DNA from: Candidatus Omnitrophota bacterium
GTDB lineage: Bacteria; Omnitrophota; Gorgyraeia; Zapsychrales; JANLHA01
Direction: 5' to 3'
Length of the DNA: 64,000 nt
NCBI GenBank assembly: GCA_963662715.1
Contig: OY759724.1
Coordinates: 1,946,662 to 2,010,661, forward strand
In this document: in pieces, positions 38,732 through 57,832 of the stretch
Layout of the letters: each line of letters begins with the position of its first letter
How positions within the stretch are numbered: the first letter of the stretch is position 1
Translations under genes and position numbers: made by a program
The notes under the pieces: model-generated
The model's database searches: none
Told to the model about the DNA's origin: nothing
The model's input: the letters and a program-made list of their open reading frames with translations, nothing else

Positions 38732-38768
38732 ACGTGCAGATGAATTAACAGGGCGTTTTTGAAATTTT

Positions 38769-39512: not shown

Positions 39513-39525
39513 CTCTCAACCGGGT

Positions 39526-40725: not shown

Positions 40726-40792
40726 ATTTCATCACAGGCCATGAGGGCTTTATCCCGGACGGAAGCTGTCCGGGCAAACCCAGGAGAACAAA

Positions 40793-41512
40793 ATGGAAGG
40801 ACCTTTAACGTTGATCATGCCGGTTTTCAATGAAGCCGAAACCATAGAGAAGGTGATCCGTGATACTTACGGAGAAGTGAGCCGCTGGCAGACGGCGGTG
40901 AACTTCATTATTGCGGAAGACGGCAGTCAGGACGGGACAAAGGAAATATTATATGAACTTCAAAAGGATATCCCTTTCACCTTGGTAAGTTCGCAGGAAC
41001 GTAAAGGCTATACCCGGGCCTTCAAGGATGCCCTGGCTTTGGCCGGGACCCCCTGGGTCCTTTTCAGCGACTCGGACGGGCAGCACGACCCCCGGGACAT
41101 GAAGAAGCTCGTTGATGCCGCGGAAGGGTATGATATCGTCAGCGGATGCAAGACCCCGCGGCATGACCCTCCGCACCGGCTGATGTTATCGTTTTTTTAT
41201 AATTCTTTTATTCATGTGCTGTTTGGCCTGAAAATGAAAGACTGCAATTCCGGTTTTAAGCTCATCCGGAAATCCGTTATCGATCAGGTTCTCCCGCAGC
41301 TTCAGGATATGCGGGATTGTATTATGTCAGAATTTATCTTGAGGGCCTATTTATTAGGTTTTAGAATTAGGGAAATCCCCGTAACGCATTATGCCCGGCC
41401 TTTCGGGCAGACGGCTATTTTTCAACTGAAACAGTTGCCGGGTATCATCTGGGGGCTGCTTAAGGCCTTGGTTCATATTAAACGGGAAGATCAAAGAAGA
41501 AAAGCGATATGA
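40793..41512 (+). CDS. family-2 glycosyltransferase (dolichyl-phosphate-sugar synthase-like)
   Basis: 'LIMPVFNEAETI...IIAEDGSQDGT...FSDSDGQHD' GT2 signature. Confidence 0.8.
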   Translation: MEGPLTLIMPVFNEAETIEKVIRDTYGEVSRWQTAVNFIIAEDGSQDGTKEILYELQKDIPFTLVSSQERKGYTRAFKDALALAGTPWVLFSDSDGQHDPRDMKKLVDAAEGYDIVSGCKTPRHDPPHRLMLSFFYNSFIHVLFGLKMKDCNSGFKLIRKSVIDQVLPQLQDMRDCIMSEFILRAYLLGFRIREIPVTHYARPFGQTAIFQLKQLPGIIWGLLKALVHIKREDQRRKAI

Positions 41513-42834
41513 AGATCCTTATATTAGGCGCGGGGCTCGCCGGTTTAGAGTGCGGGCGGCAGCTCCGTCAGCGGGGGTGTGATTTTGCAATTCTTGAAAA
41601 AGAGTCGCAGATCGGCGGCCTCGCCAGGACCAACAAGACGGGGGATTATGCCTGGGACTTCGGCGTGCATGCTCTTTACAGCCGGCATCCTCATATGACC
41701 CGGTATCTGCACAGCCTGCCGTTGGACTACGTTCCGTCGGAACGGAGAGTTTCCATTTATCATACATCAGGCAGAAACGCGCCCCCGTATTTGATTAACT
41801 ATCCTTTTGAGGAAGGCATCAAGGGCCTGCCCTGGAAGGACCGCTGGGAATGCATCGGCGGATATTTCATTTCGAAATTTCGGCATCAATCCGAATATTG
41901 TCATTTGCAGGATTGGATCGATCACGGGCTGGGCTTCGGGATCGCCAAGCATTTTATGACGCCCTACAACCGGAAAATCTGGAACTGTCCCCTTGAGGAC
42001 ATTTCCATGGATTTGGTCAATGCGAAGATTCATCCCGCTTCACTCAAGAATTTTCTTATGGCCGCTTTCGGCAGGGAGGTTATCGGGCGAATCTATCAAT
42101 GGAAATTTGTTTATCCCCGCAGGGGCATTCAGGCCTTAATGGATTACACGGCGCAAGACATCCGCGATAAGATACGGGTCAAAAAGCAGGTGGAGAAAAT
42201 AAGACGGCAGGGTACGGGCTGGGAGGTTTTAACGACCGACGGGGATATTGAGAAGGCGGATAGGGTGATTTCTACGATCCCTTTGGTGGAATTATTGAAA
42301 ATGGTTGAAATGGAAGGCCTGCACAAGAGTTTTTCTCAGCTGAAATGGAATGACACGTATTTCATTCTTGTCGGATTAAGAAAGGGATGCCGGTTTTCAT
42401 TGCTGAACGACTGCCACTGGGCTTTTTTTAAAGAGCAGGAAATTTTCTACCGGATCACGATGATGCATAATTTCAGTGAGGAGTTTTTGCCCGCCTTGGT
42501 TGCGGAGGTGACAAATAAGGAAGCCGTCCGGCAGATGTCCCCGGAACAAATACAGGCCGGGGTCCTCAAGGACTTGACGCGTTTGAACATTATCAAGAAC
42601 TCCCGGGATGTCGCTGTCACGGACATACGATACGTTCCTTATACGTACCCTATCCCTACGGTCGATCTGGATTCCGTCAAGGATACGATCACCCGGCGAC
42701 TGGAAAGGGAAAATATATTGCTTGTCGGACGAAACGGGCGCTGGGATTACCTGAACATGGACGGGATACTCCGGTCCGTTTCCGAATTTATCCGGGGCTA
42801 TTTTGGTGATGAGCCGGACGGCCCGCCGCTTTAG
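41509..42834 (+). CDS. FAD/NAD(P)-binding oxidoreductase (amine-oxidase / UDP-galactopyranose-mutase-like fold)
   Basis: 'MKILILGAGLAGLECGRQL...ILEKESQIGGLARTNKTGDYAWDFGVHALYS' GxGxxG dinucleotide motif and 'GG.A.T' motif. It overlaps the GT2 stop by 4 nt. Confidence 0.6.
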   Translation: MKILILGAGLAGLECGRQLRQRGCDFAILEKESQIGGLARTNKTGDYAWDFGVHALYSRHPHMTRYLHSLPLDYVPSERRVSIYHTSGRNAPPYLINYPFEEGIKGLPWKDRWECIGGYFISKFRHQSEYCHLQDWIDHGLGFGIAKHFMTPYNRKIWNCPLEDISMDLVNAKIHPASLKNFLMAAFGREVIGRIYQWKFVYPRRGIQALMDYTAQDIRDKIRVKKQVEKIRRQGTGWEVLTTDGDIEKADRVISTIPLVELLKMVEMEGLHKSFSQLKWNDTYFILVGLRKGCRFSLLNDCHWAFFKEQEIFYRITMMHNFSEEFLPALVAEVTNKEAVRQMSPEQIQAGVLKDLTRLNIIKNSRDVAVTDIRYVPYTYPIPTVDLDSVKDTITRRLERENILLVGRNGRWDYLNMDGILRSVSEFIRGYFGDEPDGPPL

Positions 42835-42975
42835 GGCCGGTTTATCTCCAGGGCGCTGGCTTTTATAACAGTCCCCCCAGGAGGGCGGAAGGGGGGGAAC
42901 GGACACGGGCAGCGACTGGCCGTGTGTTTGTGAAATCAATGAATGGATACATTGCTTCTGTAAGATCTCTCCTTT

Positions 42976-44637
42976 ATGAAAATTCAATTAAGAAAAATAT
43001 CCCCTGGGGCTGTCTGTCACAATGAATGTTTCCCCGCTGTTCTGTTTGTGATCTTTTTTGTCTTGAGCTGGCTGTTCATGCAGCACACTTTCAGTTATAA
43101 AGACGATACATTTTTCCTGAGACATAAAGTCTGGAGCGATTTCGGGGCGCATATCCCTCTCATCAGATCTTTTTCCATGGGAGATAATTTCTCCCTCGAA
43201 CACCCCCTGTTCCCGGGAGACCGGATGCGCTATCATTTCCTTTTTTATTCCTGGGTCGGACTTCTTGAGCAATGGGGGCTTAATATCGCTGTGGCTCTTA
43301 ACCTGCTCAGCGCCTTTGGTTTGGCTTTGTTGATGTGGCTCATCTTTCGTCTGAGTGAAAAGATGTTCACCAGCCGTTTAGCCGGGCTGCTCGCGGTCCT
43401 GCTTTTTCTTTTTAACGGATCCCTGTCCTGCCTGTTTTTCTTCCAGAAACATCCCTTGCACTGGAGTTCCTGGCAGGACATTATCACGGCAGACTCTTTT
43501 GCTTCGTTTGGGCCCTGGAACGGGATCGTAAGTATTTTCTGGACCCTGAATATCTACACCAATCAGCGGCATTTGGCTTTAAGTTATGCCGTGATCCTTT
43601 TATGTTTGTGGCCGCTGATGACCCTGGCTTTTGAAGGGAGAAAGATATCCTTAAGGAATAAGATCGCGATCGGCATGGTCGCGGCGCTTGCCCCGTTTCT
43701 TCATCATACGATTATCCCCGTTGTTTTTACATATGTTGTGATGTGGATGATATTTTGTCCCCGGATGGCAAGGGCCATAGGCCCTTATTATCTGTTCATG
43801 TTCCTTTGCGCGGTCCCGGCATTATGGTATATGAACGACGGCTCTTCCGTTGATTTTGTCTATTCCCCGGGGTTTGTTCAGCAGCCCAAAAACTGGGTGG
43901 AGTGGGCGGAATACTGGATGTATAATCTGGGGCTTTATACCGTTCTCATACCCTTTGTCTTTATATGGGCGAAGAAAGGGGGCCGCGTCTGGCTGGCTTC
44001 GTCTTTCATCCTTTTTATTGTCAGCAATATCTGGCGGTTTTCTCCGGACATGTTTAATAATCACAAGCTGATCAATTTCTTTATGATTTCTGTGCAGATT
44101 GTCGTTGCCGGATTTCTTGCGCAATGGCTGCGGAAACCCGGTCTTTTCCGGGCAGGAGCCGTGGCGTTTTTGCTGACTTTGACTTTTTCCGGAGTGATTG
44201 ATTTTTTCCCGATCCTGAATGACGGCCGGGGGGCCCTGCGGGACTTCCGCAGATCGCCCGCAGCTGTCTGGATTCAGGAGAATACGTCTCCGCAGTCCGT
44301 GTATTTATGTACGAACGGGATGAACTCTCCCCCTTCGTTCCTGGGGCGCCGGATTTATATGGGGTACGTTTATTTTCCCTGGTCCGCCGGCTTTCCCGCC
44401 TATGAAAGACTCCGGGCGATTGAACCCGTTTTTCATGAGGATACGGACCAGGAATCGGTTTGCCGGCTGCTTCAGCAGGAGCATATCGATTATATTGTCG
44501 TCGAACCCGGCACCGATGCCTGGCCGGAGATCGATATCCATGACAGTCTGTTATTAAAGACATGGACGCCAATCTTCAAAACAGATGATCGCTACAAGAT
44601 TTATTCTGTCAAGGAGGAATGTGCTGAGACACGTTAA
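42976..44637 (+). CDS. polytopic membrane protein (about 12 TM), putative GT-C-fold glycosyltransferase
   Basis: 553 aa and highly hydrophobic, with large loops. It lies in the glycosylation gene neighbourhood. I recognise no family. Confidence 0.4.
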   Translation: MKIQLRKISPGAVCHNECFPAVLFVIFFVLSWLFMQHTFSYKDDTFFLRHKVWSDFGAHIPLIRSFSMGDNFSLEHPLFPGDRMRYHFLFYSWVGLLEQWGLNIAVALNLLSAFGLALLMWLIFRLSEKMFTSRLAGLLAVLLFLFNGSLSCLFFFQKHPLHWSSWQDIITADSFASFGPWNGIVSIFWTLNIYTNQRHLALSYAVILLCLWPLMTLAFEGRKISLRNKIAIGMVAALAPFLHHTIIPVVFTYVVMWMIFCPRMARAIGPYYLFMFLCAVPALWYMNDGSSVDFVYSPGFVQQPKNWVEWAEYWMYNLGLYTVLIPFVFIWAKKGGRVWLASSFILFIVSNIWRFSPDMFNNHKLINFFMISVQIVVAGFLAQWLRKPGLFRAGAVAFLLTLTFSGVIDFFPILNDGRGALRDFRRSPAAVWIQENTSPQSVYLCTNGMNSPPSFLGRRIYMGYVYFPWSAGFPAYERLRAIEPVFHEDTDQESVCRLLQQEHIDYIVVEPGTDAWPEIDIHDSLLLKTWTPIFKTDDRYKIYSVKEECAETR

Positions 44638-44641
44638 TTTT

Positions 44642-46357
44642 ATGACAAGGAAACCATTTATAACAAGTCTTTGTCTGGCCGCTATTCTTCTTGCGGCGGC
44701 TGGCTTTCGTTTTGTCGGGATCAACTGGGATTACGGATATCAGCAGCATCCCGATGAACGCATGCTGATGCTCGTTGCGAGCCGGATCCGGTTTTTTGAC
44801 AAGCTTGACCCGGATTTTTTTAATTACGGAAGTTTTCCGGTTTATTGTGTGCGCGCCGTCGCTCAATTAAGCGATGCTTTGTTTCACACCCGGTGGGCCA
44901 ATTATGACGGCATGCTCTTTGTCGGCCGGGTTTTGGTTTCCCTTCTTGACATCCTGATGGTTTATTGTGTCTATCGGCTGGCCGACAAGCTTTTCCGTGT
45001 CCCGAGGCTGTCCCTTTGCGCCGCGGCGTTTTATGCTTTAAGTTTTTTCCCTATCCAGAACAGCAATTTTTATATCGTTGATAACTTTGTAAACTTTTTC
45101 CTGACATTATTATGCGGCCTTCTTCTGCTGTATTTAAAAAAGGCCTCTTTAAGCAAGGTTGCCGGCCTGGCGGCCCTGTTCGCCGTTTTATTAGCAACAA
45201 AAGTGACTCCGGTGATTTATTTACCGGTCATTCTTTTAATGCTGTTTTTTCAGGTCCGGGGTTTTCGGTGGCATCTTTTGCGTCCGTGGTACAGGCCGTT
45301 TCAGTACCAAGTGTTGTTTGTGTTGCTTTGTCTGGCCTGCCATTTTGTCCTCATGCCGTATGCCTATATCCGGTTTGATAAGTTCTGGAGTGATATCACC
45401 TTGCAGATGCAGATGAGCCGGGACCCTTATGTGTTCCCTTACACGCTGCAATACGTGGGGACAAAGCCTTACAGCTACTATTTTATCAATATGTTCTTCT
45501 GGGGGCTGGGCCCGATGCTGTCTTCGTTTTTCCTCCTGGGGCTTTTGTCGGTTTTTCTTCCGGGTGCGCAGCAGGCGAAAAGACAGGGACGAGTGTTTGT
45601 CTTCGTCCTGGTCTATGTTTTATGGAATTTTTATTATTTTGCCGTTTTGGGCCGGTCGGCGGTCAAGTTCATGCGCTATATGCTGCCTTTATATCCTTTC
45701 GCAGCCGTGATGGCGGCGGCGGGATTTGAATGGACCTTAAGCTTATTTAAAAGAAAAAAAATGCAGGGGCTTTATTTTGTTGCCGCCTTCGGGTTCATTT
45801 TCCTATGGACCGTCTGCTTTGTTGATATTTATTCGCGTCCTCTCACCAGGATTGAAGCCTCCAAGTGGATTAACCGGCACATCCCGGCCGGAGCTGTTTT
45901 AGCGGTGGAACACTGGGACGAACGTCTGCCGTTGTTCGGTGTTGACCGGTATGTTTTCGTAGAACTGCCGCTGTACGAATATCCGGACCAGGAGAGAAAG
46001 TGGGCGGGGATGAAAGATAAACTCCGGCAAGCCGATTATATTATTATCGCCTCACAAAAATTGTTTGTCCCTTTGCAGAAGCTGGGAAATTGTCAGGAGG
46101 TCGCAAGGTGCTATCCGAGAAGCGGGGATTATTACAGAAAGCTCTTTGCCGGGCAGCTGGGTTTTGAGAAAGTCGCTGAGTTTACCTCTTATCCGGGATT
46201 AACGGTTTTGGGCCGGCGGTTTGACTTTCCTGATGATCAGGCCGATGAATCCTTTTCCGTTTATGATCATCCGAGGGTTTATATTTTTCAAAAGAGGGGC
46301 TTTTCCCAATCCGAACGGCAGTATCCTTTTCCCGCGGAGTCACCGGGGCGGCAGTGA
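44642..46357 (+). CDS. ArnT/PMT-like GT-C glycosyltransferase (GT39/GT83-like)
   Basis: 'WDYGYQQHPDERMLMLVA' acidic first-loop motif and the ArnT-like topology. The start is given per the ORF-track frame (MTRKPF...). My own nucleotide count around 44639-44644 disagrees by 1 nt, so treat the start as +/-1. Confidence 0.55.
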   Translation: MTRKPFITSLCLAAILLAAAGFRFVGINWDYGYQQHPDERMLMLVASRIRFFDKLDPDFFNYGSFPVYCVRAVAQLSDALFHTRWANYDGMLFVGRVLVSLLDILMVYCVYRLADKLFRVPRLSLCAAAFYALSFFPIQNSNFYIVDNFVNFFLTLLCGLLLLYLKKASLSKVAGLAALFAVLLATKVTPVIYLPVILLMLFFQVRGFRWHLLRPWYRPFQYQVLFVLLCLACHFVLMPYAYIRFDKFWSDITLQMQMSRDPYVFPYTLQYVGTKPYSYYFINMFFWGLGPMLSSFFLLGLLSVFLPGAQQAKRQGRVFVFVLVYVLWNFYYFAVLGRSAVKFMRYMLPLYPFAAVMAAAGFEWTLSLFKRKKMQGLYFVAAFGFIFLWTVCFVDIYSRPLTRIEASKWINRHIPAGAVLAVEHWDERLPLFGVDRYVFVELPLYEYPDQERKWAGMKDKLRQADYIIIASQKLFVPLQKLGNCQEVARCYPRSGDYYRKLFAGQLGFEKVAEFTSYPGLTVLGRRFDFPDDQADESFSVYDHPRVYIFQKRGFSQSERQYPFPAESPGRQ

Positions 46358-46558
46358 CCCTGCTTGGGCGTGGGGGAGGAGAGACGAGCCGGAGAAGGAC
46401 GCGTACTTTTAAAATAATGATTCTGTGCGTGGGCCAGGATCAAAATATGATATAATTCCCTAAAATTAAGGAAGAATGCCGGATTCCTAAAATTTATAAA
46501 TATTTAAAGGCCGTTTCCTTGTCCCGGGTCCTCTGAGGCCGCATGTGATTTCCTGTCC

Positions 46559-48265
46559 ATGGATACAAAAAATAATATGATATGTCCTCAAAACCGGTTT
46601 TCCCTGAACAGAAATTTTCTCCTTTTTATCGGTTTTTTTATCTTGATTATTATTGAGTTCTGTGCCTACCAGTGGCAAGGCAAGCTGTCCTTCATCGCTT
46701 CAAGGCTTTGGCTGCTGCATGGGAGCTTTTATGTCCTCTGCAGTCTCGGTGTTATAGTCAAAACCTTGAAAAAAGATTTTCAGGAAAGAAATTTCCGCGG
46801 GCTGTTAATTTTTTTCCTCTTTGGTTTGGTCCTTTTTCATACGGTGGGTTCCCGGGGAATAACCATAAATCACGAAAGCACGCAACAGGTGGCGGACGGC
46901 TGTGGTTTCTTTAAGCAGCCGGATTTCAGCTACACCAAAATAGGTTTTCTGGGATATCCGGCCCGTCAATATCTGCTCCTGGCCCTTCCGTCCCTGATGT
47001 TCGGCCGGAGTCTCATAACTCTCCGGTTGCCTTATGCCGCAGCCTTTTTTCTTGGGGTGATGCTGTTTTATTGCGGACTTAACCGGTATTTTGACGAAAG
47101 GAAAACAGGCCGGACCCTGCTGGCCCCGTTTGTCACCCTGTCATTGCTGTGTTTCCCCGTCCTTGTCAGTATCCTGATTTCCTTTGAACAGGCTGTCCTG
47201 CCTTTATCCTTTACTTTGCAGGCGACGGGGTGGTTTTTATTGTGTCTGAAAACGATAACCCGTCTGCGGGCTGTTTGTCTGGCGTTCATCGGCGCCTTGT
47301 TGGCGACGGCGTACACCCCCGGGCTCGCTTCATGGGGCCTGCTTATTGTCCTGCTGGGCGTTCAAATATGGCGTGAGGGCCGATTGAAGGATTTTAACTC
47401 AACGGTCCTTTGGATAAATGTCCTGTTATTCGCTGGTCTTGTCGGAGCATTTTCGTTCTTTACGCGTATCGATCTGTTTTCCCGGGAGAGCGGATTATGG
47501 ATTCCCCATTATTTGATAGGCCCCTATTTGTTGGATGTCTTCAAGGCTCTTTTTATCCCTTTCGAACAGGCCTTTCTTCCTGTTCCCGTCGTTATTTATT
47601 TCATGTTATCCTTAATGTCTGTATTCCGTCGCCGGGATTTTGCCGTATCTCTCTGGGCGATGCTGACAATTTTTCTGGCCACGCAGCTGGGAGGATTTGC
47701 CAAACCGGCACCCCCTTACAGCCTGCACAGGGCCCTGGTGATCATTCCGCCGCTTTTGACCTCTATGGCCTTGACCATAGAGTCCTGGGTGGCGGATAAA
47801 GGTGTCAGAGTGTTGAAAAGGGTCGTTTTTTTCGCCCTGTGCCTGGGGGTTTTGTTTGCCGGCAAGAATTTGTACGAAAGTTTAAAACTTTGCCGCAGCG
47901 GTCCCCGGGATGTCGTGATATTTAATGTCCTGGATGCGGTCGAGGAGTTCGGGGTTGATAAGTCCGGTAAAATGAGGATTCTTGTCGCTCCCGGCAATTT
48001 AAATTATAGCAACCTTTATGACTGCTTCAGATATTTTCTGCCGAAGTCCGAATTCTTATGGCACCCGACCACCGTTGGTAAGCTTGAGAATATGGATGCC
48101 CCTGCTTTTGTTTATCTTGATAGACCGGAGTGGCGTGCAGGAATTATGGACATGATGAAGGGAGGGCAGGGCCATTATGCCATCATTAGATTTCATTATG
48201 ATAATAAAGAGATACAATTTCTCAGAATTATTTGCGTCTCGGAGAAAAACAAAGACAGAAAATGA
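46559..48265 (+). CDS. polytopic membrane protein (568 aa), putative GT-C-like transferase
   Basis: More than 10 TM helices and a C-terminal soluble domain. It lies in the glycosylation neighbourhood. Confidence 0.4.
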   Translation: MDTKNNMICPQNRFSLNRNFLLFIGFFILIIIEFCAYQWQGKLSFIASRLWLLHGSFYVLCSLGVIVKTLKKDFQERNFRGLLIFFLFGLVLFHTVGSRGITINHESTQQVADGCGFFKQPDFSYTKIGFLGYPARQYLLLALPSLMFGRSLITLRLPYAAAFFLGVMLFYCGLNRYFDERKTGRTLLAPFVTLSLLCFPVLVSILISFEQAVLPLSFTLQATGWFLLCLKTITRLRAVCLAFIGALLATAYTPGLASWGLLIVLLGVQIWREGRLKDFNSTVLWINVLLFAGLVGAFSFFTRIDLFSRESGLWIPHYLIGPYLLDVFKALFIPFEQAFLPVPVVIYFMLSLMSVFRRRDFAVSLWAMLTIFLATQLGGFAKPAPPYSLHRALVIIPPLLTSMALTIESWVADKGVRVLKRVVFFALCLGVLFAGKNLYESLKLCRSGPRDVVIFNVLDAVEEFGVDKSGKMRILVAPGNLNYSNLYDCFRYFLPKSEFLWHPTTVGKLENMDAPAFVYLDRPEWRAGIMDMMKGGQGHYAIIRFHYDNKEIQFLRIICVSEKNKDRK

Positions 48266-48295
48266 TTCCGCTGCCATGAATTTCCTGGGGGTTCT

Positions 48296-49894
48296 ATGAC
48301 CCGGCTATTTATCAGTTTCCCAATGTTCCGCGGTGTTTTTCTGGGTGTGCTTCTGTCTCTGTTGTGCATCCTGAAGAAGGAATGCTTTGTCCGTATTCAG
48401 CTAATAAGAAAGATTCTTCTTGCGGCCCTTGCTTATTTAGCCATCCCTTCTCTGTTGTTTTGTTTTTCTTTGCCTCTCCCGCTTCCTCATCGCAGCGCGC
48501 TTTGTCTTCTGGTCATGTACTGCTTCTTTTCTTCCGTCCGGAAAATTAAGAACCACAGAACTTTCCCGCCGTGTGATTACGAATATAAAATAAGGCTCGA
48601 TTTTTTCCTCATGGGTATTTTGTTATTGGCGTTGAATCAAGGGGCTATCTTTTTTGACCTCAGTGTGGTGGGGGACTGGCATAAACATCGCAGTGTTTTG
48701 ATGAGCCTGTACGAGAATCCCTGGGACCCCTTGTTATGTACAGGCTTTGATTGCTCCGCCCAGGTCGCTCCGGGCATGCATCTGGTTTATTATTACGCCA
48801 TGTATCTTCCCGGCGTGTACGTTTGCAAATTGTTGGGAGGAATGGTTTCGTCTTTGGCCGGGCCGTCCCTTTGGAGTATCCTGTCGGTGTCTTTCCTGAT
48901 CTGGAATCTTTTGGGGATGATGATTGTTTTTCTCCTGTTGCCTGTCGTGTGTCAGGTCCTGTTTAAAACAAAAGACAGGGTGTCCTGGGGGATTTTTTAT
49001 CCTGTCTTAATATTTTTCGCGGGCATGGATTATTGGTTCATCTGGATTCACAAGAAAACCTGGCTGATCGGTCATGCCGAATGGGGGGCGACGGCCTATA
49101 ATGCGCAGATGAGTTCTTTTATCAGTATGTGGTCATGGGTCCCTCATCAGCTTGTTGTCGGGTTCTTAGGGATATCCCTGCTGATCTTGTTCAGCCGGAA
49201 TTTTTCTTTGTTCCCTTTCTGTTTGTGGACTGTTTTCCTGCTGTCCGGGGCCAGTCTGGCCTGGATCGGCAGCATTCCGATATTGGTTTATTTTCTTGTC
49301 GTCCGGTTCCTGGACATCCGTCAGGAATTGTCCTGGGGCTGTCTGCGGAATATTTTTGCCGCGAACCTGATAAACATCCTGGCCGGACTTTTTATAACGA
49401 TGACCATTTTTCTGTTTTACAGCACGAAGGTGGAGGCCGAGGGATTTGATATCTTATTAAAGAGGACAACGGTGGGGGATTTCCTGCTGTTTCATTTTAT
49501 CGAATTTTATCCGACGTTTATGCTGGTTGTCGCGTATCGTCTGTTGCGCCGGACTGTCCCGCCCATTCTAGGGTTTTTATTCGGATGGATTGTCTTTATT
49601 GCCATGTTTCACGGCGGCAACTGGAATGATCTGGTGATGCGGGGAAGCCTGCCGGCGTTGTCTGTTATTATGATTTTCTGTGCTTATGCCGTTCAGGCCG
49701 TGATTCAGAAAAAACGGACCGCATCCCTTATTTTAGTGCTGCTTGTGCTCCTGCTGACCTTCCCTTTATTTTTAAATGAATATTTTGTCGCTTTGGAGGG
49801 GATGCATCCTCAGCTGGAGGAAGGCTACGCTGTTTATATGCAGTATGCCGGAGACGGCCGTGTCCGGGGGGTTTGGAAACTGTTTAACCTGTAA
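48296..49894 (+). CDS. polytopic membrane protein (532 aa), hypothetical (possible polymerase/ligase or GT-C)
   Basis: 12 or more TM helices and no recognisable motif. Confidence 0.4.
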   Translation: MTRLFISFPMFRGVFLGVLLSLLCILKKECFVRIQLIRKILLAALAYLAIPSLLFCFSLPLPLPHRSALCLLVMYCFFSSVRKIKNHRTFPPCDYEYKIRLDFFLMGILLLALNQGAIFFDLSVVGDWHKHRSVLMSLYENPWDPLLCTGFDCSAQVAPGMHLVYYYAMYLPGVYVCKLLGGMVSSLAGPSLWSILSVSFLIWNLLGMMIVFLLLPVVCQVLFKTKDRVSWGIFYPVLIFFAGMDYWFIWIHKKTWLIGHAEWGATAYNAQMSSFISMWSWVPHQLVVGFLGISLLILFSRNFSLFPFCLWTVFLLSGASLAWIGSIPILVYFLVVRFLDIRQELSWGCLRNIFAANLINILAGLFITMTIFLFYSTKVEAEGFDILLKRTTVGDFLLFHFIEFYPTFMLVVAYRLLRRTVPPILGFLFGWIVFIAMFHGGNWNDLVMRGSLPALSVIMIFCAYAVQAVIQKKRTASLILVLLVLLLTFPLFLNEYFVALEGMHPQLEEGYAVYMQYAGDGRVRGVWKLFNL

Positions 49895-49960
49895 TGTGCT
49901 CCCCTTGCGGTGCAGAACCCTGAGATTGAAATCTGATGAGCGGGAGGTTGAAATCAACGC

Positions 49961-50998
49961 TCACATGAATTTTTTCACCAGCCCCAAAAGCCCTTGCTTC
50001 CAGGCCGCTGTGTGGGTGATCCCTGCTTTACGGCTTTTGATGTCCTGATAATTCTCCAAATACCAGGCATAGGTCTTGATAAGAATCTGTGCGTTGGAAT
50101 AGCGCGGGGACCATTTCAGGGTGTTTTTAAGTTTGTCAATGGAGACATAGGAATCTTTATCCGCGGTATCGTAAACCCATTGATAAAGAGGAGAGAGCCG
50201 GATAGCTTCCAGGAAACGCAAGAAACCTTTAATTGTGTTCGCTGAAGTGGGGAAGAGGGTGGAGCCCGATTCCGCAAAATGGAATAAGGCTTCCAGGTCA
50301 TCCTGGACCGTGCTGAATTTTTCTGCCGCGACATTAAAGACGTCGTTGAACGCTGCGTCCTGTTTCTGAACAAAAAGCGCGATGACGTCAACCAGATCAT
50401 CGACCGCCAAAAGCTGGTAGGAGTTCTGTCCGTCTCCGATAACCGGAATCTTCTTGCCGTCATGCACCCAGTCAAAAAGGATTTCAAAGACGCCCAGCCG
50501 GCCGGTGCCTAAAAATGTCTTTGGCCGTAAAATCGTTACGTTAAGGCCTTTTTTTATATATCCAAGACACAGTTCTTCTGCGGCGATTTTGGATTCGCCG
50601 TAAGGCCCGACGCCCATTAACCGGTCGCTTTCTAGAATGGGATGTTTTTCCGGAATGCCGTAGACAGCCGTCGAAGAGATATAAATCACTCTCTGAACAT
50701 GGTGGGTATGCGCGGCATCCAGGATGTATTTTGTCCCGCTGACATTGGTGGAAAAAATATCCGCTTTTTTCCAGAGGGGGAGCGCCGCAGCGGCATGAAT
50801 AACGATATCCATCCCTCTGACAAGCTCCGGGATGTTTTCTTCCTGCCGGATATCCCTGCGGATAAAACGGCAGGATTTTTTTAAAGGATTGTCGACCGAA
50901 GCGATATCCACCAGCGTGAGTTTATGATTTTGTTTAAGCAGGGAATGCGCACAGTGTGTGCCCAGGAAACCGGCTGCGCCTGTAATGAGAATATTCAT
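49961..50998 (-). CDS. NAD-dependent epimerase/dehydratase (SDR, extended family)
   Basis: 'MNILITGAAGFLG' Rossmann motif and 'YGESK' catalytic YxxxK. It is the only minus-strand gene in the locus. Confidence 0.8.
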   Translation of the reverse strand: MNILITGAAGFLGTHCAHSLLKQNHKLTLVDIASVDNPLKKSCRFIRRDIRQEENIPELVRGMDIVIHAAAALPLWKKADIFSTNVSGTKYILDAAHTHHVQRVIYISSTAVYGIPEKHPILESDRLMGVGPYGESKIAAEELCLGYIKKGLNVTILRPKTFLGTGRLGVFEILFDWVHDGKKIPVIGDGQNSYQLLAVDDLVDVIALFVQKQDAAFNDVFNVAAEKFSTVQDDLEALFHFAESGSTLFPTSANTIKGFLRFLEAIRLSPLYQWVYDTADKDSYVSIDKLKNTLKWSPRYSNAQILIKTYAWYLENYQDIKSRKAGITHTAAWKQGLLGLVKKFM

Positions 50999-51128
50999 GG
51001 AGGCCCCTTCTTTAAAAATGAGAGAAAAAAGATATTTTTGTTCCGTTCAGGAAATTAGTGTTTTATTATATCACAGAGGAAAAGTCTTCCCAAAAGCCAA
51101 ACGAGGTAATTTGTCGGTTAAAAAATAA

Positions 51129-53228
51129 ATGAATCCTATCCTGATAAATTTAGGTCTTATCGTTTTTGCCTGGTTCATGACGCTCATTCTTCAGCTGTTC
51201 GCTGTCCCGGTGATCGTCGTGAAGCTCCGGAACGTGTTGTTCGACGCCGGATGGGCTTTCGGCCGGCTGGTGTCCTGGTTAAGCCTTGGCCTGCCGATAT
51301 GGTTTTTAGCCCATTTCCAATGCCCTGTGAATAATCAGCCCGGGCTGTTTATCGTTTTTTTCCTTTGGGCGGCTTTGAGCTGGAGAACTTTTCATAAGAA
51401 TAAGGATGAAATAGTGCTTTATCTGCAGGAAAAGTGGCCCTGGCTCCTTGCAGAAGAAGTTGTTTTCGCGTTTGGCTTTTTCTTTTTCAGCCTCATGCGG
51501 GGTTTTGCTCCTGATATCCTTGATTTAGAGAAGTTCATGGACATGGGCCTGATGGCCTCTTATCTCCGCGCTGACACTTTCCCGGTTTTGGATATGTGGT
51601 TTGCCGGAGAAACCATGAACTATTATACATTCGGGCATTTTTTGGGTTCCATCATGACGAGGTTCTGGTCGGTGCCTTTACATTACAGCTATAATTTATT
51701 ATTGGGCCTTGTGTTCGGCCTGACAATGGTCCACAGCTTTGGTTTTGTTTTGAACCTTTTACAGAGAAGCGGGGATGAAACAGCCCCGCCCCTGGGCCCG
51801 CTGGTCTGGGGAGGGGCTGTCGGGGCTTTTTTGATTGTTTTTGCCGGGAACAGCCATGCGATTTGGTACGGGATCAAAAACCACGGCTGGCAGGGATATT
51901 GGTATCCGGACGCGACGCGATTTATTCCCTACACGATTCATGAATTCCCGGCGTATTCATTTATTGTCAGTGACCTGCATGCCCATGTCTGGAATTTCCC
52001 CCTGGTGATCGCCTTATTGACAGCGATTTTTTTGTGGTACCGCGCGGTATTGATTTCCGAACAGCCGAGACGGATTTATCTTCGGGCTTTTTTTGTGAGT
52101 TTGATGTTCAGCATCTGTTTTATGACCAGCGCCTGGGACGGGGGTATCTATGCGCTACTTTTAGGTGTTTGCGGAGTGAGCCTGCTGATGTTTTATCCGA
52201 AACGTTTCCGGCATATTGCCGCTTCTCTGGGGCTCATGGGGTGTCTGTCGGCCTTGATTTCTTCAGCCTGGTGGTTGCATTTCCGTCCTATTTCCGAAGG
52301 GGTCGGGATAGTGGAAACCAGTACTCATTTCTGGCAAATGTTGATTGTCTGGGGCGGGTTAGGCCTCGGGAGTTTTTTGGCTTTCAGCATCGCTGACCAT
52401 CAAAACAGACATTTGATTTATATGGCCCATGTCGTTAAAAGAAGAAAGCAGGCTGTCTTAGGTCTTGTGATGGCGCTTATTGCGGCGGCCTGGATTCTCA
52501 TATTGCTCCCGGAACTTATTTATGTCAAAGACATTTATCCGAATCATCCCCGGGCCAACACGATGTTTAAATTTACTCTGCAGAGCTATATCTTTATGTG
52601 CCTCTCAACAGGCTGGGCTTCGGGTTTTATTTGGCTGAAAGAGTTTCTGCCGCATAATAAATACCGCTTATGGATCAGGGGTTTTTTGTCATTCGTTCTT
52701 ATTGTTGTTGTTTCTTCGCTTTTAATTTATCCGTATTTCGGCTATCGGGACAGATACGGTCAGTTGAAAAATTTTAAAGGACTCGACGGATTAACCTGGC
52801 TTAAAGAAAAATATCCTGATGATTATGCGGCTGTCTTATGGCTGAATCAAAATGTCTCCGGACAGGCTGTTATATTAGAGGCGGTGGGCACCAGCTATTC
52901 TGAATTCAGCCGGATATCGGCTTTTACCGGCCTTCCGACGGTCGTTGGCTGGCCGGTCCATGAATGGTTGTGGCGGGGTTCATACGATATCCCGGGTTCA
53001 CGCATCGAAGAAGTCAGGAGGATGTACGAGAACCCGGTCTCTTATAATTCGGCCATGTCTTTTGAAAAGTACCTGGTGGATTATATATTTGTGGGAGCCA
53101 AGGAGCGGGAGGCCTATCCTGAGCTTAAAGAAAGGCAGCTCCGGGCGTTAGGAAAGGTGATTTTTGAACAGGGAGACACGTTGGTCGTTAAACGTAATAT
53201 AAGCCCTGCGATGTATCCGATTTATTAA
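51129..53228 (+). CDS. large polytopic membrane protein (699 aa), DUF2298/GT-C-like
   Basis: About 14 TM helices with a C-terminal soluble domain. The pattern resembles predicted GT-C families. Confidence 0.4.
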   Translation: MNPILINLGLIVFAWFMTLILQLFAVPVIVVKLRNVLFDAGWAFGRLVSWLSLGLPIWFLAHFQCPVNNQPGLFIVFFLWAALSWRTFHKNKDEIVLYLQEKWPWLLAEEVVFAFGFFFFSLMRGFAPDILDLEKFMDMGLMASYLRADTFPVLDMWFAGETMNYYTFGHFLGSIMTRFWSVPLHYSYNLLLGLVFGLTMVHSFGFVLNLLQRSGDETAPPLGPLVWGGAVGAFLIVFAGNSHAIWYGIKNHGWQGYWYPDATRFIPYTIHEFPAYSFIVSDLHAHVWNFPLVIALLTAIFLWYRAVLISEQPRRIYLRAFFVSLMFSICFMTSAWDGGIYALLLGVCGVSLLMFYPKRFRHIAASLGLMGCLSALISSAWWLHFRPISEGVGIVETSTHFWQMLIVWGGLGLGSFLAFSIADHQNRHLIYMAHVVKRRKQAVLGLVMALIAAAWILILLPELIYVKDIYPNHPRANTMFKFTLQSYIFMCLSTGWASGFIWLKEFLPHNKYRLWIRGFLSFVLIVVVSSLLIYPYFGYRDRYGQLKNFKGLDGLTWLKEKYPDDYAAVLWLNQNVSGQAVILEAVGTSYSEFSRISAFTGLPTVVGWPVHEWLWRGSYDIPGSRIEEVRRMYENPVSYNSAMSFEKYLVDYIFVGAKEREAYPELKERQLRALGKVIFEQGDTLVVKRNISPAMYPIY

Positions 53229-53253
53229 TTATTTTTTGTCGGGGAGGGGAATT

Positions 53254-53691
53254 ATGAAAAGAATAACTAAGATGACCAGAGATGAAAAAAATTTGTATAA
53301 ACGGTATCTTCTTTGGTGTTATAAGACGACCCGCGAATCCCTGGAAAGGATTGACAGGAAATTTACGCAGTTGGATATCGATAAGTTTGTCTATGACGAT
53401 ATCTGCAAATGTCCTGAACTGCGAGACAAGTCTAAAGAGAAAAAATATCAAGGGAAACTTGTTGAATTTAAGCAGTATATAACGCATAAAGAGAAAAGTG
53501 CTTATGTTGAAAAATTTGAACGGGGCAAGATCCCGGAGTTAAAAGCAGATTACTGGTATTGGGATAAACGATTAAAAGCCATTAAAAAAGCCGTAAGACA
53601 TTTCTTGGGGGCAAGAGCTTTAACCCAAATTGAGCGAGCTTATGAAGAGGAAATGGAGCGGCGTATTTTGGCGGCACGGGAGCATTCCTGA
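53254..53691 (+). CDS. hypothetical soluble protein (about 145 aa), basic
   Basis: GGGGAGGGG RBS 5 nt before the ATG at 53254. No motif. Confidence 0.4.
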   Translation: MKRITKMTRDEKNLYKRYLLWCYKTTRESLERIDRKFTQLDIDKFVYDDICKCPELRDKSKEKKYQGKLVEFKQYITHKEKSAYVEKFERGKIPELKADYWYWDKRLKAIKKAVRHFLGARALTQIERAYEEEMERRILAAREHS

Positions 53692-53821
53692 AAAAATATT
53701 TTAACAATGGACGTTTTAATTTGTTTGTTATTTTGTAAATTATTGCAATTAAATATTTTACGGCTAGACAATTTGTTAAGACTTCTTCAATTCAGATAAA
53801 AATATGTTATAATATAACTAA

Positions 53822-54061
53822 ATGAAGAAAGAAATGCTGAAGAAATTATTTAACAAGAAAGCCCAGCAGACAGTTGAGTTTTTGTTGGTGTTTACGGTTG
53901 TCGTCGTGGTTATTTTTGTCTTTATGAGGCCAGGCGGTGAATTTCAGACCGAATACCCCAGGGCTCTTAATGCCCCTGTTCAAAGTATGGTCGAAGTTGC
54001 CGATATGGTTTGGGGAGACGCAACCGGAACATTGCAGGTCTCCTCTCCGGGCCCTCCGTGA
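53822..54061 (+). CDS. Flp/type-IV-pilin-like prepilin (class III signal peptide), 79 aa
   Basis: 'NKKA|QQTVEFLLVFTVVVVVIFVF': basic leader, a Glu at +5 and an aromatic at +6 after the putative cleavage site, then a hydrophobic helix. The size is Flp-like. An alternative start is at 53834, preceded by a GAAAGAA RBS. Confidence 0.5.
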   Translation: MKKEMLKKLFNKKAQQTVEFLLVFTVVVVVIFVFMRPGGEFQTEYPRALNAPVQSMVEVADMVWGDATGTLQVSSPGPP

Positions 54062-54380
54062 TCCGTATCCTTTTATTCCCGTAGAATTTTACACTGCCTT
54101 TTTACATAATAATACTTTTGAGAGCAGGCTTTTATCCTTATTAGGCCTTATAAAGGCCTTGTGTTTGCTGTCTCATACATATCAAAAAATCCGTTATTGG
54201 GGCGTTTCCCGTATAATAAAAGCGATTCGGGCCTATGCACGCATCATTTTATTGGTTTATGGCTTATGCCCAAGTTATTAGGTAAATCCAGAGAGAAATA
54301 CAAAATTTTTTATTGATTTTTGAAAATTATGTTATACTAATATTAAATTATCTCTATAAAAATTGATACTTCATTAAACC

Positions 54381-55694
54381 ATGAAAGTTGTTAATAAAAA
54401 AGCCCAACAAATCATAGAGTACCTTTTGCTTGTTGCTGTTGTGGTTGTTGGAATCTTGTCTTTTGTCGGGCCTTTCGGGCCTTTTCGTCCTGCGGTAGAG
54501 GACTCCATAAAACAGTCTTTAGCGCAGATTAATGCTGAAACAGCAAAACACTGCAGTGATCCCAGCTGTTTCTCCGTAATCGCCTGCCCGGATGCCCTTT
54601 TCTGCCAGCTGGCTTATATGGGTGATGTCGGCGCGTGTCAGCAGTGTGAAGCCTGTTGGCCTTGTTGCGGCGACGGGACCTGTGGTGCAGGGGAAGACAG
54701 TGGTAGCTGCCCGGAGGATTGTATCGCCTGCGGGGATCCCGCCTATGACTGCTCGACGCAAGCCAATTGTGCGGCCTGTGCAGCCTGTTCTCCCTGCTGC
54801 GGAGATGGTGTTTGCGATGCCGGGGAAACGGCACTTTCTTGTCCTGTTGATGGCTGTGCCGCTGCCTGCGGGGAACCGGGTTTTGACTGTGTCGCTGGCT
54901 GCGGCAGTTGTGCGGCCTGTTCTCCATGCTGCGGAGACGGCGTTTGTAATGAAGACCCGGCGTCATGTGTCGCAGACTGTCCTATAGGCTGCGGTCATCC
55001 TTCGTATGATTGTAGTATTCCGGCAAATTGCGCCTCATGCGGTTATTGCCAGCCCTGCTGCGGTGATTCCCAATGTACCTCGGGGGTTGAGACTTATTGC
55101 GGGACAGGCGGGACAGATGCCTGTACATTGGATTGTACCGCTGACTGTCCTAATGGTGTTTGTGATGACTGTGCCGGAGAGAACTCGACGAACTGTCCGG
55201 AAGATTGCGGGGCGCTGTGCGGGGATGGCACGTGTGATTATCCGGGGACGGAAGACTGTGACGCCTGCTATCAGGACTGCGGATATTGCAGCTGGTGGAC
55301 CGGTGCCTGGGGGGCTTGTCTCGGTGACTGCACGATCCCTTCCTGTATTCAAACGAGAACGGTCGAATGCCGGGATTTCGGTTCCAACAGCGTTCTTTTC
55401 GGATACTGTGAAGCCTCTGGAGAACCTGAGCCGACCCAGACATGTACTTGCCCTACTTGTACGCCGACGCCGACCCCAACGCCGACGCCAACCTCAACCC
55501 CGACTCCGACAGTGACGCCGACCCCGACGGAAACTCCGACTCCGACGCCGACTCCGACAGTGACGCCGACCCCGACAGTGACGCCGACGCCGACGATTAC
55601 CCCGACCCCGACAGATACCCCGACGCCGACCCCAACGCCGACGATTACCCCGACCCCGACAGATACCCCGACGCCGACCCCAACGCCCGGCTGA
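54381..55694 (+). CDS. pilin-like secreted/surface protein: class III signal peptide, tandem Cys-rich repeats and a C-terminal Pro-Thr tail
   Basis: The N-terminal 'NKKA|[18 protein letters not shown]' is paralogous to the 79-aa gene. Aa 86-216 hold three repeats of about 43 aa (CxxCxxCxPCCGDGxC...E...CPxDC...CG.P.YDC...AN) plus a degenerate fourth. The last 85 aa are (PT)n. Confidence 0.6.
54636..55028 (+). repeat. three tandem repeat units of about 130 nt, encoding the Cys-rich repeats
   Basis: The units share near-identical stretches such as tgtgcggcctgt...tgttctccatgctgcggagacggcgtttg. Confidence 0.5.
55593..55688 (+). repeat. exact 2 x 48-nt tandem duplication within the Pro-Thr-coding tail
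   Basis: acgattaccccgaccccgacagataccccgacgccgaccccaacgcc(g/c) occurs twice back to back, encoding [16 protein letters not shown] twice. Confidence 0.8.
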
Positions 55695-55975
55695 TGCCTG
55701 AATCCTGTTATTCTTAGAATATCCCTTTTTGTCCGTAAGCGGGGTTCTTTCTTCTCGTGAGACTCGGGGAAAGAGGCATTTTTGTTTTGCAAGCCTTTAC
55801 GTCATTCACTTCTTTTCTTGCAAAACTTAATGAATATATTAAAATATTAAAAGTTGTCTCTGGATTTTTTTCGGTATAAAGGTCTGTCGCCCGGGATAAT
55901 ATCTTTTCTGCAGACAGGATGAGCCTGTCTGCAAAATTTGTTTATGAAGAGGCTGAATAACGTATTGTATTAAGA

Positions 55976-57832
55976 ATGGTTGTCCCCATGATGATGAATT
56001 TTTTAACTTTATTGTTATCAACGTGTTGTCTTTGTTATGTGTTCATCCTTGCGCGGGCTATGAGCTTATGCCTGCATCAGGAAGTTTTCTGGCTGAGCCT
56101 TGCTCTGGGAGGTTTTTTCAGCGCGGGATGTGCGGGGTTTTTCTTTTGGATGCGACGTTCTAAAACCGATAAAAATTCTTTGATTTTTATCGAAATGGGC
56201 CAGACAACAGCCGGAGCGCTTGCCGTTCCTTTCATGTATTTGAGTTATTGTTTGAGCCTATATATAGGGGAAACATTGAATTACTACGCGGGTCTGTTTT
56301 TGTTTTTCTCTTTATATTTGTTTGTCGTTCTTTTTCTGGGTCTTTGTTCGGGAGGGGCTTTGTTTCTCTTGTCTCGAGGGAACGGCAAAGATTCAGCCCG
56401 GAATGAAATCGTTCCGGAACGCCTCAGGTTCCACTTTACAGGGTTTCTGTTGTCTGTCATCGTTTTTGTCGTCTTCTGTTGGCTGCGCCGTGAATTGTTT
56501 GTCATCGGATTTTGGTTGGGTTTATTGAACCTCGGTATTGTCTGGGTTTTGATTTTTATCCTAAGACCCCATGAGCAGAATCGGACGCGTAATATTACGG
56601 CCGCGAGTATTCTCCTTTTTTTGCTGACGGTCGCTCTGGTCCGTCAGGCCTCTCTGGAACAGTATTTTTTAAAAAAGTTGTATTTTGTCAAGCCTGTGCA
56701 GCAGATTATGGATGTGTTCCGCCTGGACCCGGAGTGGCAGGATATTACCCGGTATAGAACATCTCATAATAATATTGATATTGTTCCCTTTAACCCTAAT
56801 CCTTTTGATATTTGGCTGTTGTCTTCATACAGCAGGAAATATTTAGACAACCCGGCCTATCCCTGGGCCTATTTTATACTTTTAAATCATCAGCTTCTTC
56901 AGAATGCCCAGTGGGATGAATTTCATCATGAATATTTTATTCATGTCCCTATTATTCTCCAGGGACAGGTCCCCAGAAAAGTTCTCATATTGGGAAACGG
57001 GGGAGGGTTGTTATTAAAAGACCTTATTCAATATGATTCTATCGAGAGCATCACTTGTGTTGAACGCGATCCCGAGATAATGGATTTCTTCCTGAGTCAT
57101 TCCATGATGCAGTATATGGGCAGTGGTTCCCTGGGGGACCCCCGGGTTGAAATCGTTGATGAAGAAGGCCTGTTATTCATGCAGGATAAAGCCCGGGATT
57201 ACGATGCTATCTATATAACGTCTCCGGATGTTTCGGGTTATGAATTCAGTCAATATTATAGCCAGGAATTTTTCCGTTTTATCGGAGAACATTTGAATGA
57301 GAACGGTTTTATCGTGATTGATCCTAAAGGGATTGTTGGTCCCGGTCCGGAGACCGTTACGGACCGACGGCTTAACCCCTGGCCGAAATATTTAAGTACT
57401 CTGATGTCTTCCGGGTATAAAACAATCGTGCCTTATGCCATAAATTTGGAGCCCGACAATCCGAAAATTCTTGAGAAAATAGGAATTGTCCTCTACGGCC
57501 GGGACTTTTTTGCGTCCGGTTCCTGCGACCCTCAAATTTCATCTTGTGTGCCTGAAGAAGAAAAATTGCATGCTGTCAAACGCATTGTTTCATCATTCGT
57601 TAAAAGTTTCCGGCAGGGATTTATTTTTATGAAGAAAAAAGAGACTCCCTTGTATTCGGATGTTCCCCTGGCAGGCGTTCCTTGGCAGGTTTTAAATCAG
57701 AACCGGGTTGACCGGGCCCTGGCATGGCGTCCGGCTTTCCCGGAATCCTTTGATAGCACGCAAGTCAATTCTCTCCTGCGGCCCACGTTGCCCGTGTTCC
57801 GGTTGCGTTCTTTATTGCCCATATCCGAATAA
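55976..57832 (+). CDS. fused membrane domain / spermidine-synthase-like protein (second paralog)
   Basis: N-terminal 6-7 TM, then 'VLILGNGGGLLLKDL...ITCVERDPEIMDFF...DPRVEIVDEEGLLFM...YDAIYITSPDVSG...FFRFIGEHLNENGFIVI' (SpeE-like fold with the Asp retained). Confidence 0.65.
   Translation: MVVPMMMNFLTLLLSTCCLCYVFILARAMSLCLHQEVFWLSLALGGFFSAGCAGFFFWMRRSKTDKNSLIFIEMGQTTAGALAVPFMYLSYCLSLYIGETLNYYAGLFLFFSLYLFVVLFLGLCSGGALFLLSRGNGKDSARNEIVPERLRFHFTGFLLSVIVFVVFCWLRRELFVIGFWLGLLNLGIVWVLIFILRPHEQNRTRNITAASILLFLLTVALVRQASLEQYFLKKLYFVKPVQQIMDVFRLDPEWQDITRYRTSHNNIDIVPFNPNPFDIWLLSSYSRKYLDNPAYPWAYFILLNHQLLQNAQWDEFHHEYFIHVPIILQGQVPRKVLILGNGGGLLLKDLIQYDSIESITCVERDPEIMDFFLSHSMMQYMGSGSLGDPRVEIVDEEGLLFMQDKARDYDAIYITSPDVSGYEFSQYYSQEFFRFIGEHLNENGFIVIDPKGIVGPGPETVTDRRLNPWPKYLSTLMSSGYKTIVPYAINLEPDNPKILEKIGIVLYGRDFFASGSCDPQISSCVPEEEKLHAVKRIVSSFVKSFRQGFIFMKKKETPLYSDVPLAGVPWQVLNQNRVDRALAWRPAFPESFDSTQVNSLLRPTLPVFRLRSLLPISE

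Follow-up and report, generated by a model that had tools for sequence, protein, structure and literature searches.

Two paralogous genes, probably for Tad/Flp-class prepilins, lie away from pilus-assembly genes in an Omnitrophota genome

Why should genes that look like pilin genes stand where no pilus machine is encoded? The question is raised by 64,000 nucleotides of DNA from a Candidatus Omnitrophota bacterium (contig OY759724.1 of assembly GCA_963662715.1, positions 1,946,662 to 2,010,661; hereafter, the window), in which a small and a large gene follow one another on the forward strand and encode proteins that begin almost alike. An earlier note on this DNA took both for proteins with a class III, prepilin-type signal. 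We favor, with moderate confidence, the view that the two are paralogous Tad/Flp-class (type IVc) prepilins of Omnitrophota that are encoded away from the pilus-assembly locus. The large protein appears to be a pilin module carrying an unusually bulky cargo, as we discuss below.

Both open reading frames (ORFs) are present where the earlier note had drawn them, with the N-terminal pattern that it had read (Table 1). The small protein begins with MKKEMLKKLFNKKA up to the predicted cleavage point and continues with QQTVEFLLVFTVVVVVIFVFM, and the large one begins with MKVVNKKA followed by Gln. Their common start is KKA/QQ[TI][VI]E[FY]LL (the slash marks the predicted cut), followed by a hydrophobic helix of about 20 residues; the highest Kyte-Doolittle scores over 19 residues are 2.84 in the small protein and 2.76 in the large one. 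The two products are paralogous, as had been proposed, with 42% identity across 52 residues (pairwise E 4e-5). When all 64 kb were scanned in six frames for [KR]..[GA]Q...E[FYWL] plus a hydrophobic run, just these two N-termini matched.

Judged by their conservation, both genes are real and under selection, since they have syntenic orthologs, retained identity and fixed Cys residues. Synteny of the pair is seen in six related genomes (L001, L002, L004, L005/L006, and L007). Eight orthologs of the small protein, 64–84% identical to it, keep [GA]/Q.T[IV]EF, and the large ORF is intact, at 66–68% identity, in L001, L002 (partial), L004, L005, and L007. A metagenome scan added three further close orthologs only, all on activated-sludge contigs. 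The closest homolog of the large protein bears the name Candidatus Omnitrophota, and the exact protein is not in a collection of 15 billion proteins; the gene is uncalled in four related assemblies (L004–L007) despite the intact ORF. The large gene is also crossed by long spurious ORFs, in other frames as well as on the complementary strand (e.g., 55349–55792, reverse strand). The small product had been given as 79 residues. Its ORF and its Flp-like size hold, but translation probably starts at position 53834, because the orthologs begin at the equivalent of Met5 and a Shine-Dalgarno sequence is present there, which leaves 75 residues. The predicted mature protein is the same under either start codon.

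The class III, prepilin-type arrangement claimed for these N-termini is upheld by the orthologs and by the wider family, which matches the Class_IIIsignal and Flp_Fap models of Pfam. Orthologs of the small protein read NNSG/QSTIEFLL, NNQG/QQTIEFLL or NRRG/QHTIEFLL, and those of the large protein NK[KTR]A/QQIIEYLLL. In both sets position -1 is always Gly or Ala, and Gln at +1, Glu at +5 and an aromatic residue (Phe or Tyr) at +6 are fixed; some 20 hydrophobic residues and a P-x-G-x-F turn follow. Across an alignment of 51 family members the Glu is invariant and the Gln four residues earlier nearly so. Two orthologs carry the JGI label “UPF0333 family,” and one ortholog has a precomputed PF04021 match. 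Neither window protein matches Flp_Fap (PF04964, cut-off 32.2 bits) or the TadE and TadF models of Pfam. The AlphaFold2 model of the small protein, of moderate confidence overall, has helices at residues 2–35 and 40–68, with block means of the predicted local distance difference test (pLDDT) of 84–93 over residues 11–30. Compared with PDB sequences, the family profile shows weak N-terminal similarity to geopilins (E about 0.09). Gln at +1 had been likened to archaeal EppA substrates. The likeness holds, but the residue also occurs at +1 in Gram-positive Flp pilins (PMC3875500). It fits the archaeal origin proposed for Tad systems (PMC6668835) without identifying the peptidase.

How far the small protein's relatives extend was assessed by comparing 1.84 billion representative proteins with a profile built from its orthologs and the large protein's N-terminus. 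The search returned 680 representative clusters at E ≤ 1e-3, mostly of 55–75 residues, that share the N-terminus [KR][GA]Q[SQN][TI][IVL]E[YF] and a common C-terminal pattern. A word-index search with the N-terminal profile found nine proteins; among 1641 matches to the full 437-residue protein, only one came out as a true homolog, Pro-Thr low-complexity sequences making up the bulk. When 51 sampled members of the family were compared with Pfam at E ≤ 0.1, Class_IIIsignal was matched by 43, with one member, P0136 (28.8 bits), above the cut-off of 23.7. Flp_Fap was matched by 17, all weakly (best E 1.1e-4, none above the cut-off), Flp1_like by 10, and TadE, again weakly, by two. On a 720-bp contig (L008), two small pilin genes stand in tandem at 238–634, one weakly tagged by Flp_Fap and the other, also weakly, by Class_IIIsignal; the two models thus tag neighboring paralogs of one family. 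On these profile matches, the small gene adds a member to a large family of Tad/Flp-class pilins that extends across Omnitrophota and has mostly escaped annotation.

What machine might such pilins serve? One genome per species, from 185,579 species, was scanned for QST[LVI]EY[IV]IL, which gave 101 confirmed loci. We kept 80, nearly all of them from Omnitrophota (55 carry that title, 20 are titled “uncultured Planctomycetales/-ia,” and five have other labels), clustered their ORFs, and named cluster representatives by Pfam. The locus is conserved and, by its gene content, Tad-like: RcpC is found in 53 of the 80 loci, a secretin in 55, a ParA+T2SSE fusion in 60, and T2SSF in 49. Its order begins with a PpiC/SurA-like protein, RcpC/CpaB, a secretin with a TonB_C end, a 720-residue fusion of ParA-type and CpaF/TadA-type (T2SSE) ATPases (L009–L088), and DUF192. 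There follow a protein of about 600 residues without a Pfam match, a pilin of 60–70 residues, four to six pilin-like genes of about 115 residues, a pilin-like protein of 430–570 residues, another of about 95, a protein of 1100–1700 residues, and two T2SSF proteins (TadB/C). Canonical members of the small-pilin family head the pilin block. Tad and type IVa pili are common in Omnitrophota (PMC10066038).

The signals encoded in these loci set the standard for those of the window. Among the Tad-locus pilin genes that pass the filter [GAS]xxxxE, all have Gly or Ala at -1, with Gly/Ala counts of 211/144 (cluster c0), 19/38, and 24/26 in the pilin-like clusters. Gln occupies +1 in 93–100%, Lys or Arg predominates at -2, and +6 holds Tyr, Phe or Leu. 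By these statistics, [KR]-[GA]/Q-x-x-x-E-[YFL] is a signature of the pilin-like genes in the Tad-like locus of Omnitrophota, and the KKA/QQ..E[FY] start found in the window, Ala at -1 included, is standard for the Tad-like machine.

The earlier note had also stated that the window holds no tad, pil or secretin genes and that the machinery lies elsewhere. Pfam finds none among 44 ORFs of the window. A tblastn search of the window with all members of eleven Tad-locus clusters from the 80 loci agrees: it found only the two genes themselves and an unrelated ParA-like gene near 35199. Machinery elsewhere is illustrated by a related metagenome-assembled genome, JAKQKX01 (PNPase 86% and DUF2298 protein 67% identical to those of the window), in which the orthologous pair (L007) occurs together with an entire Tad-like locus (L038) that has nine genes of the class III type. 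Such an arrangement has a parallel in the Epd system of Methanococcus, where stand-alone class III genes, that of the major pilin included, lie off the main locus (PMC4858521).

Several orphan loci have a common backbone: an AlgE-like porin, a 191-residue protein, a ParA-like protein with a glycogen-binding module, a small membrane protein, the pilin-like gene, and rpsO-pnp-ftsK. A small partner protein (Table 1) accompanies the orphan pilin-like gene in the close relatives and in one distant lineage. It is helical, with 140–151 residues, and its only Pfam match is a weak one to DUF7202 (E 0.0024). At the distant locus L089, its homolog (44% identity, E 4e-40; 4569–5006) lies directly downstream of an orphan pilin-like gene of 62 residues, in reversed order.

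The large protein carries the same N-terminus as the small one, four tandem Cys-rich modules and a Pro-Thr tail, all as had been described. When the small-pilin profile of the Tad loci was aligned with the large-protein family by hhalign, residues 3–52 matched with 97.7% probability (E 2e-12), and the sequence of this module is nearly that of two free-standing proteins of 62 residues, P0139 and P0141. The large protein thus appears to consist of a whole Flp-sized pilin module and some 380 residues more. The C-terminal 380 residues are unrelated to pilins in Pfam and PDB sequence searches. They begin with a Cys-rich region whose C..C..C.PCCGD..C modules recur at residues 86, 130, 174, and 217, with a period of 44, followed by two shorter modules of the CxxGxC...CPEDC type. 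The protein has 62 Cys, as does each of five orthologs, and 59 aligned Cys columns are invariant; this constancy fits a putative extracytoplasmic, disulfide-bonded domain. The isolated Cys-rich modules match no Pfam family even at E ≤ 10.

Beyond the Cys-rich array lies a thrombospondin type-1 (TSP1)-like module. It matches TSP1_ADAMTS (PF19030) across model positions 1–55 of 55, with E 2.9e-4 and 21.5 bits, below the cut-off of 23.8, and the same match is seen in two orthologs (E 1.3e-3 and 2.8e-3). A phmmer search of PDB with the Cys-rich region gave, at E ≤ 10, one match, the TSP1 domain of THSD7A (8oxr_A, E 0.0015). The tail is encoded by tandem DNA repeats with periods of 18 and 48 (55461–55687) and recurs, with differing length, in every full-length ortholog and in P0270, a distant homolog of 418 residues that has Cys-rich modules and a TSP1-like module as well. 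Other members carry parts of this assembly: P0200 and P0231 (150–170 residues) have Cys-rich modules, and P0162 and P0197 have Pro/Thr- or Gly-rich tails. By this architecture, the large gene encodes a putative Flp-class modular pilin with a Cys-rich, TSP1-like and Pro-Thr-tailed cargo, a new variant of pilin; we see no sign that the system itself is of a novel kind.

We also asked whether the Cys-rich modules are linked to the giant protein of the Tad-like locus (cluster c6), and dropped the idea, as only two of its 55 members carry one unit. The two (L014, 14210–19009; L016, 14213–19009) have a single CGDGxC...CPKDC unit that resembles the modules of the large protein (tblastn E 3e-5), and the other 53 giants are without it.

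These observations suggest how the pair might work. The hydrophobic helix would place both proteins in the inner membrane, and an A24-type prepilin peptidase would cut the leader before Gln +1. A Tad-like machine encoded elsewhere, with the ParA-type/CpaF fusion ATPase, a TadB/C platform, RcpC, and a secretin, may then extract both into a filament. The small protein, with a mature part of 65 residues modeled as two helices, would be a filament subunit. The large protein would consist of a pilin module of about 50 residues, a region of about 250 residues with conserved Cys, in which disulfides would presumably form, the TSP1-like module, and the Pro-Thr tail. Its most likely role would be that of an adhesin displayed at or near the filament tip.

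Several results weigh against taking the pair as prepilins. The small protein matches Class_IIIsignal below the cut-off (E 0.006; 16.9 bits against 23.7), and the N-terminus of the large protein has no match to this model (PF04021) at E ≤ 10. A Foldseek search of PDB with the small-protein model returned nothing at E ≤ 0.001, and so no solved pilin, and for the large protein AlphaFold gave no usable model (pLDDT 37). We know of no characterized precedent in Tad pili for a subunit of 437 residues with up to 31 disulfides and a terminal Pro-Thr tail. Every recovered context of the sub-branch to which the window proteins belong is an orphan (L003, L089–L093), so that none of these proteins is physically linked to a pilus machine. 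An A24 prepilin peptidase was found neither within 10 kb of the pilin in the 80 Tad-like loci nor, by Pfam, in the window; a scan for the active-site-loop motif found none in the window or in L001–L091. As no such peptidase was seen, by Pfam or by motif, in the window or in the 93 fetched loci, we infer leader cleavage from the motif alone.

That no peptidase was found is one reason to consider that one or both proteins, most plausibly the large one, might keep an uncleaved signal-anchor and act as bitopic inner-membrane or periplasmic proteins, perhaps as Tad accessories rather than filament subunits. The hydrophobic stretch has the length to span a membrane, and Tad-like loci themselves encode proteins of 430–1700 residues (clusters c3 and c6) that begin in a similar way and may likewise be processed or not. 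A plain anchor, however, would have no need of the exact -1/+1/+5/+6 signature that is conserved here; free-standing members of 62 residues differ little from the large protein's pilin module, and TSP1-like and Pro-Thr modules typically occur in surface proteins that are exposed. We therefore regard a signal-anchor role as rather unlikely. Ordinary Sec signal peptides, cut by signal peptidase I or II, share the basic n-region and the hydrophobic region that are common to all signal peptides, but they would not account for an invariant Glu inside the hydrophobic region and a nearly invariant Gln four residues earlier. The hydrophobic run is about 20 residues long, no conserved lipobox or AxA site follows it, and the family is embedded in Tad-like loci. 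An ordinary Sec signal is thus highly improbable.

The DNA upstream of the pair suggests another role, which overlaps with the prepilin reading and does not exclude it. The two proteins could be surface glycoproteins tied to the gene cluster at 37835–53228, with PMT_2/DUF2298-type enzymes that O-glycosylate the tail and a signal that serves mainly as an export route. The cluster encodes a UbiA prenyltransferase, two GT2 proteins, a GDSL-like protein, an FAD amine-oxidase-like protein, four membrane proteins of 530–590 residues (one PMT_2), an NAD epimerase (reverse strand), and a DUF2298/chlor_Arch_YYY protein. By these assignments it looks like a polyprenyl-phosphate-sugar and GT-C glycosylation system. 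It is not found in the same backbone of L089 and L093, and a comparison of the loci indicates that about 16 kb were inserted into the backbone in the lineage of the window. The block of GT2, FAD oxidase, large membrane proteins (PMT_2), epimerase, DUF2298, partner, small and large genes is kept in the four loci that reach far enough, and L002 reaches as far as the epimerase. At L089, which is distant, there is neither a glycosylation cluster nor a Pro-Thr-tailed protein. A pilin gene next to such enzymes would have a parallel in Pseudomonas aeruginosa, where pilin genes adjoin those of the GT-C glycosyltransferases TfpW/TfpO. The shared synteny is nevertheless weak evidence for the link, because all six genomes are close relatives, and the distant Pro-Thr-tailed P0270 lies beside lpxB and ribosomal genes on a 10-kb contig with no GT-C gene. 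A role mainly as substrates of this cluster is a possibility that we hold to be doubtful, and prepilins of the Tad/Flp class remain our preferred reading of the pair.

The promoter-like TATAAT elements that had been noted in the AT-rich DNA around the genes hold up in part. Two extended -10-like motifs are conserved: TGnTATAAT is retained upstream of the small gene in five of six orthologous regions while the surrounding DNA has diverged, and TGnTATACTAAT (TGnTATACT) upstream of the large gene in six of six orthologous loci. A generic promoter scan of the region, however, gave six sites against 4.2 expected, which is not above chance; it missed the element at 53805–53813 because there is no -35. 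The terminator-like hairpin between the genes is weak, such sites being not above chance in the region.

Table 1. Coordinates of the two prepilin-like genes, their parts and adjacent elements in the window (position 1 is its first nucleotide).
Feature	Position	Strand	Basis or remark
Small Tad/Flp-class prepilin-like gene	53822–54061	+	ORF, 79 aa as drawn
Small gene, likely true start	ATG 53834 (Met5), 75 aa	+	Ortholog alignment, ribosome-site position
Small gene, leader end and mature part	Ala14 at 53863; mature 65 aa, 53864–54058 (predicted)	+	
Large modular pilin-like gene	54381–55694, including stop codon	+	ORF, 437 aa
Large protein, leader MKVVNKKA	54381–54404; predicted cut Ala8/Gln9 (54404/54405)	+	
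Large protein, leader and pilin module (aa 9–52)	54381–54536	+	hhalign, free-standing homologs
Large protein, putative disulfide-rich region (aa 58–303)	54552–55289	+	Regular expression, conserved Cys
Large protein, four C..C..C.PCCGD..C modules	54636–54683, 54768–54815, 54900–54947, 55029–55076	+	Regular expression
Large protein, thrombospondin type-1-like module (aa 303–360, including CIQTRTVEC)	55287–55460	+	Pfam TSP1_ADAMTS
Large protein, C-terminal Pro-Thr tail (77 aa, aa 361–437)	55461–55691	+	Composition: 38 T, 29 P
151-aa soluble partner protein	53236–53691	+	Directly upstream of small gene; all six related loci
Extended -10-like element TGTTATAAT	53805–53813	+	Upstream of small gene; read from sequence
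Extended -10-like element TGTTATACT	54330–54338	+	Upstream of large gene
Terminator-like hairpin AGGCCTTATAAAGGCCT with T-rich tail	54143–54159	+	Between the genes; consensus scan

The rest of the window offers a few further observations. The gene directly downstream of the large one, in conserved synteny (55976–57832, forward strand), and a paralog at 3980–5647 (reverse strand) encode large membrane proteins with a C-terminal spermidine-synthase-like domain. A DEAD/Hel308-like helicase of 727 residues (7689–9872, reverse strand) matches Pfam “Archaeal helicase, domain 4” (E 3e-28) in this bacterial genome. A stand-alone PilZ protein of 122 residues (18008–18376, forward strand) is encoded directly upstream of a PolX/PHP DNA polymerase gene; PilZ is a receptor fold for c-di-GMP and not a pilus component. 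A sigma-70 factor, PNPase and an AlgE-like porin are also encoded and, with the PilZ protein, show the DNA to be bacterial, and an Rfam scan of the window found one tRNA and nothing else. Only four of the long ORFs lie on the reverse strand, and GC skew is positive in every 1-kb window except 55001–56000, where the Pro-Thr-coding repeat lies; the strand bias and the skew indicate that the window lies on one replichore.

Omnitrophota are uncultured, mostly ultra-small, and suspected to be predators or parasites. Tad pili are among the few attachment devices predicted for them (PMC10066038). For these bacteria, the analysis yields a signal signature of the pilin-like genes of the Tad locus, additional pilin genes outside that locus, and a candidate adhesin with an Flp-sized module as its base. 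Should the large protein prove to be displayed on a pilus, it would offer a concrete handle on what Omnitrophota cells bind. It would be speculative, and in our judgment improbable as a whole, to go further and see in it the first modular pilin of the Flp/Tad class, a disulfide-knotted, TSP1-like adhesin that is heavily O-glycosylated by the GT-C cluster and serves, on a Tad pilus, in recognition of host or prey by an Omnitrophota nanobacterium. The absence of the large gene's product from the protein collection also shows that Cys- and Pro-Thr-rich genes escape gene callers.

The closest known relatives appear to be the Flp/Tad (type IVc) pilins, such as Flp1 of Aggregatibacter and PilA of Caulobacter. 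Like the family described here, they mature to about 50–65 residues and consist of little more than a hydrophobic helix behind a short leader, with Glu at +5 and Tyr or Phe at +6, and the family shares with them a locus containing RcpC/CpaB, a secretin, a CpaF-type ATPase, and TadB/C. They differ in that +1 is Ala or Val there and Gln here, and in that -1 is Ala in about 40–65% of the Omnitrophota genes; the Flp_Fap model is matched only weakly by the family, and the window copy lies outside any tad locus. The pseudopilins TadE, TadF, and TadG resemble the large protein as larger proteins with an Flp-like hydrophobic N-terminus beside a major Flp pilin. Unlike them, the window proteins have no TadE/TadF match or vWA-type domain and are not in a tad locus.

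Archaeal Epd pilins (DUF361/UPF0333/PF04021) share the Gly or Ala at the leader end, Gln at +1, and Glu at +5. Their mature parts have 54–63 residues and many of their genes stand alone (PMC3875500; PMC4858521), as here, and PF04021 is the best-matching Pfam family for the small-pilin family. In contrast to the archaeal system, the host here is a bacterium and there is a secretin in the Omnitrophota locus; the proteins here also have Tyr or Phe at +6, which Methanococcus pilins lack (PMC3875500). Tad systems are themselves thought to derive from an Epd-like archaeal system (PMC6668835).

The architecture of the large protein recalls the modular type IV pilins, such as PilB and PilC of Streptococcus sanguinis, CofB, TcpB, and GspK, in which a bulky module is likewise grafted on a small pilin module. 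Those pilins belong to the type IVa, type IVb or type II secretion classes, whereas the carrier here is Flp-sized and its cargo, a Cys-rich array with a TSP1-like module and a Pro-Thr tail, belongs to no Pfam family. The survey of modular pilins did not cover the Flp class (PMC8179133), because it used the methylation motif IPR012902, which is absent from Flp-class pilins. The modular pilins in that survey are polymerized through their pilin module, probably at the filament tip, and have been proposed to act in adhesion (PMC8179133).

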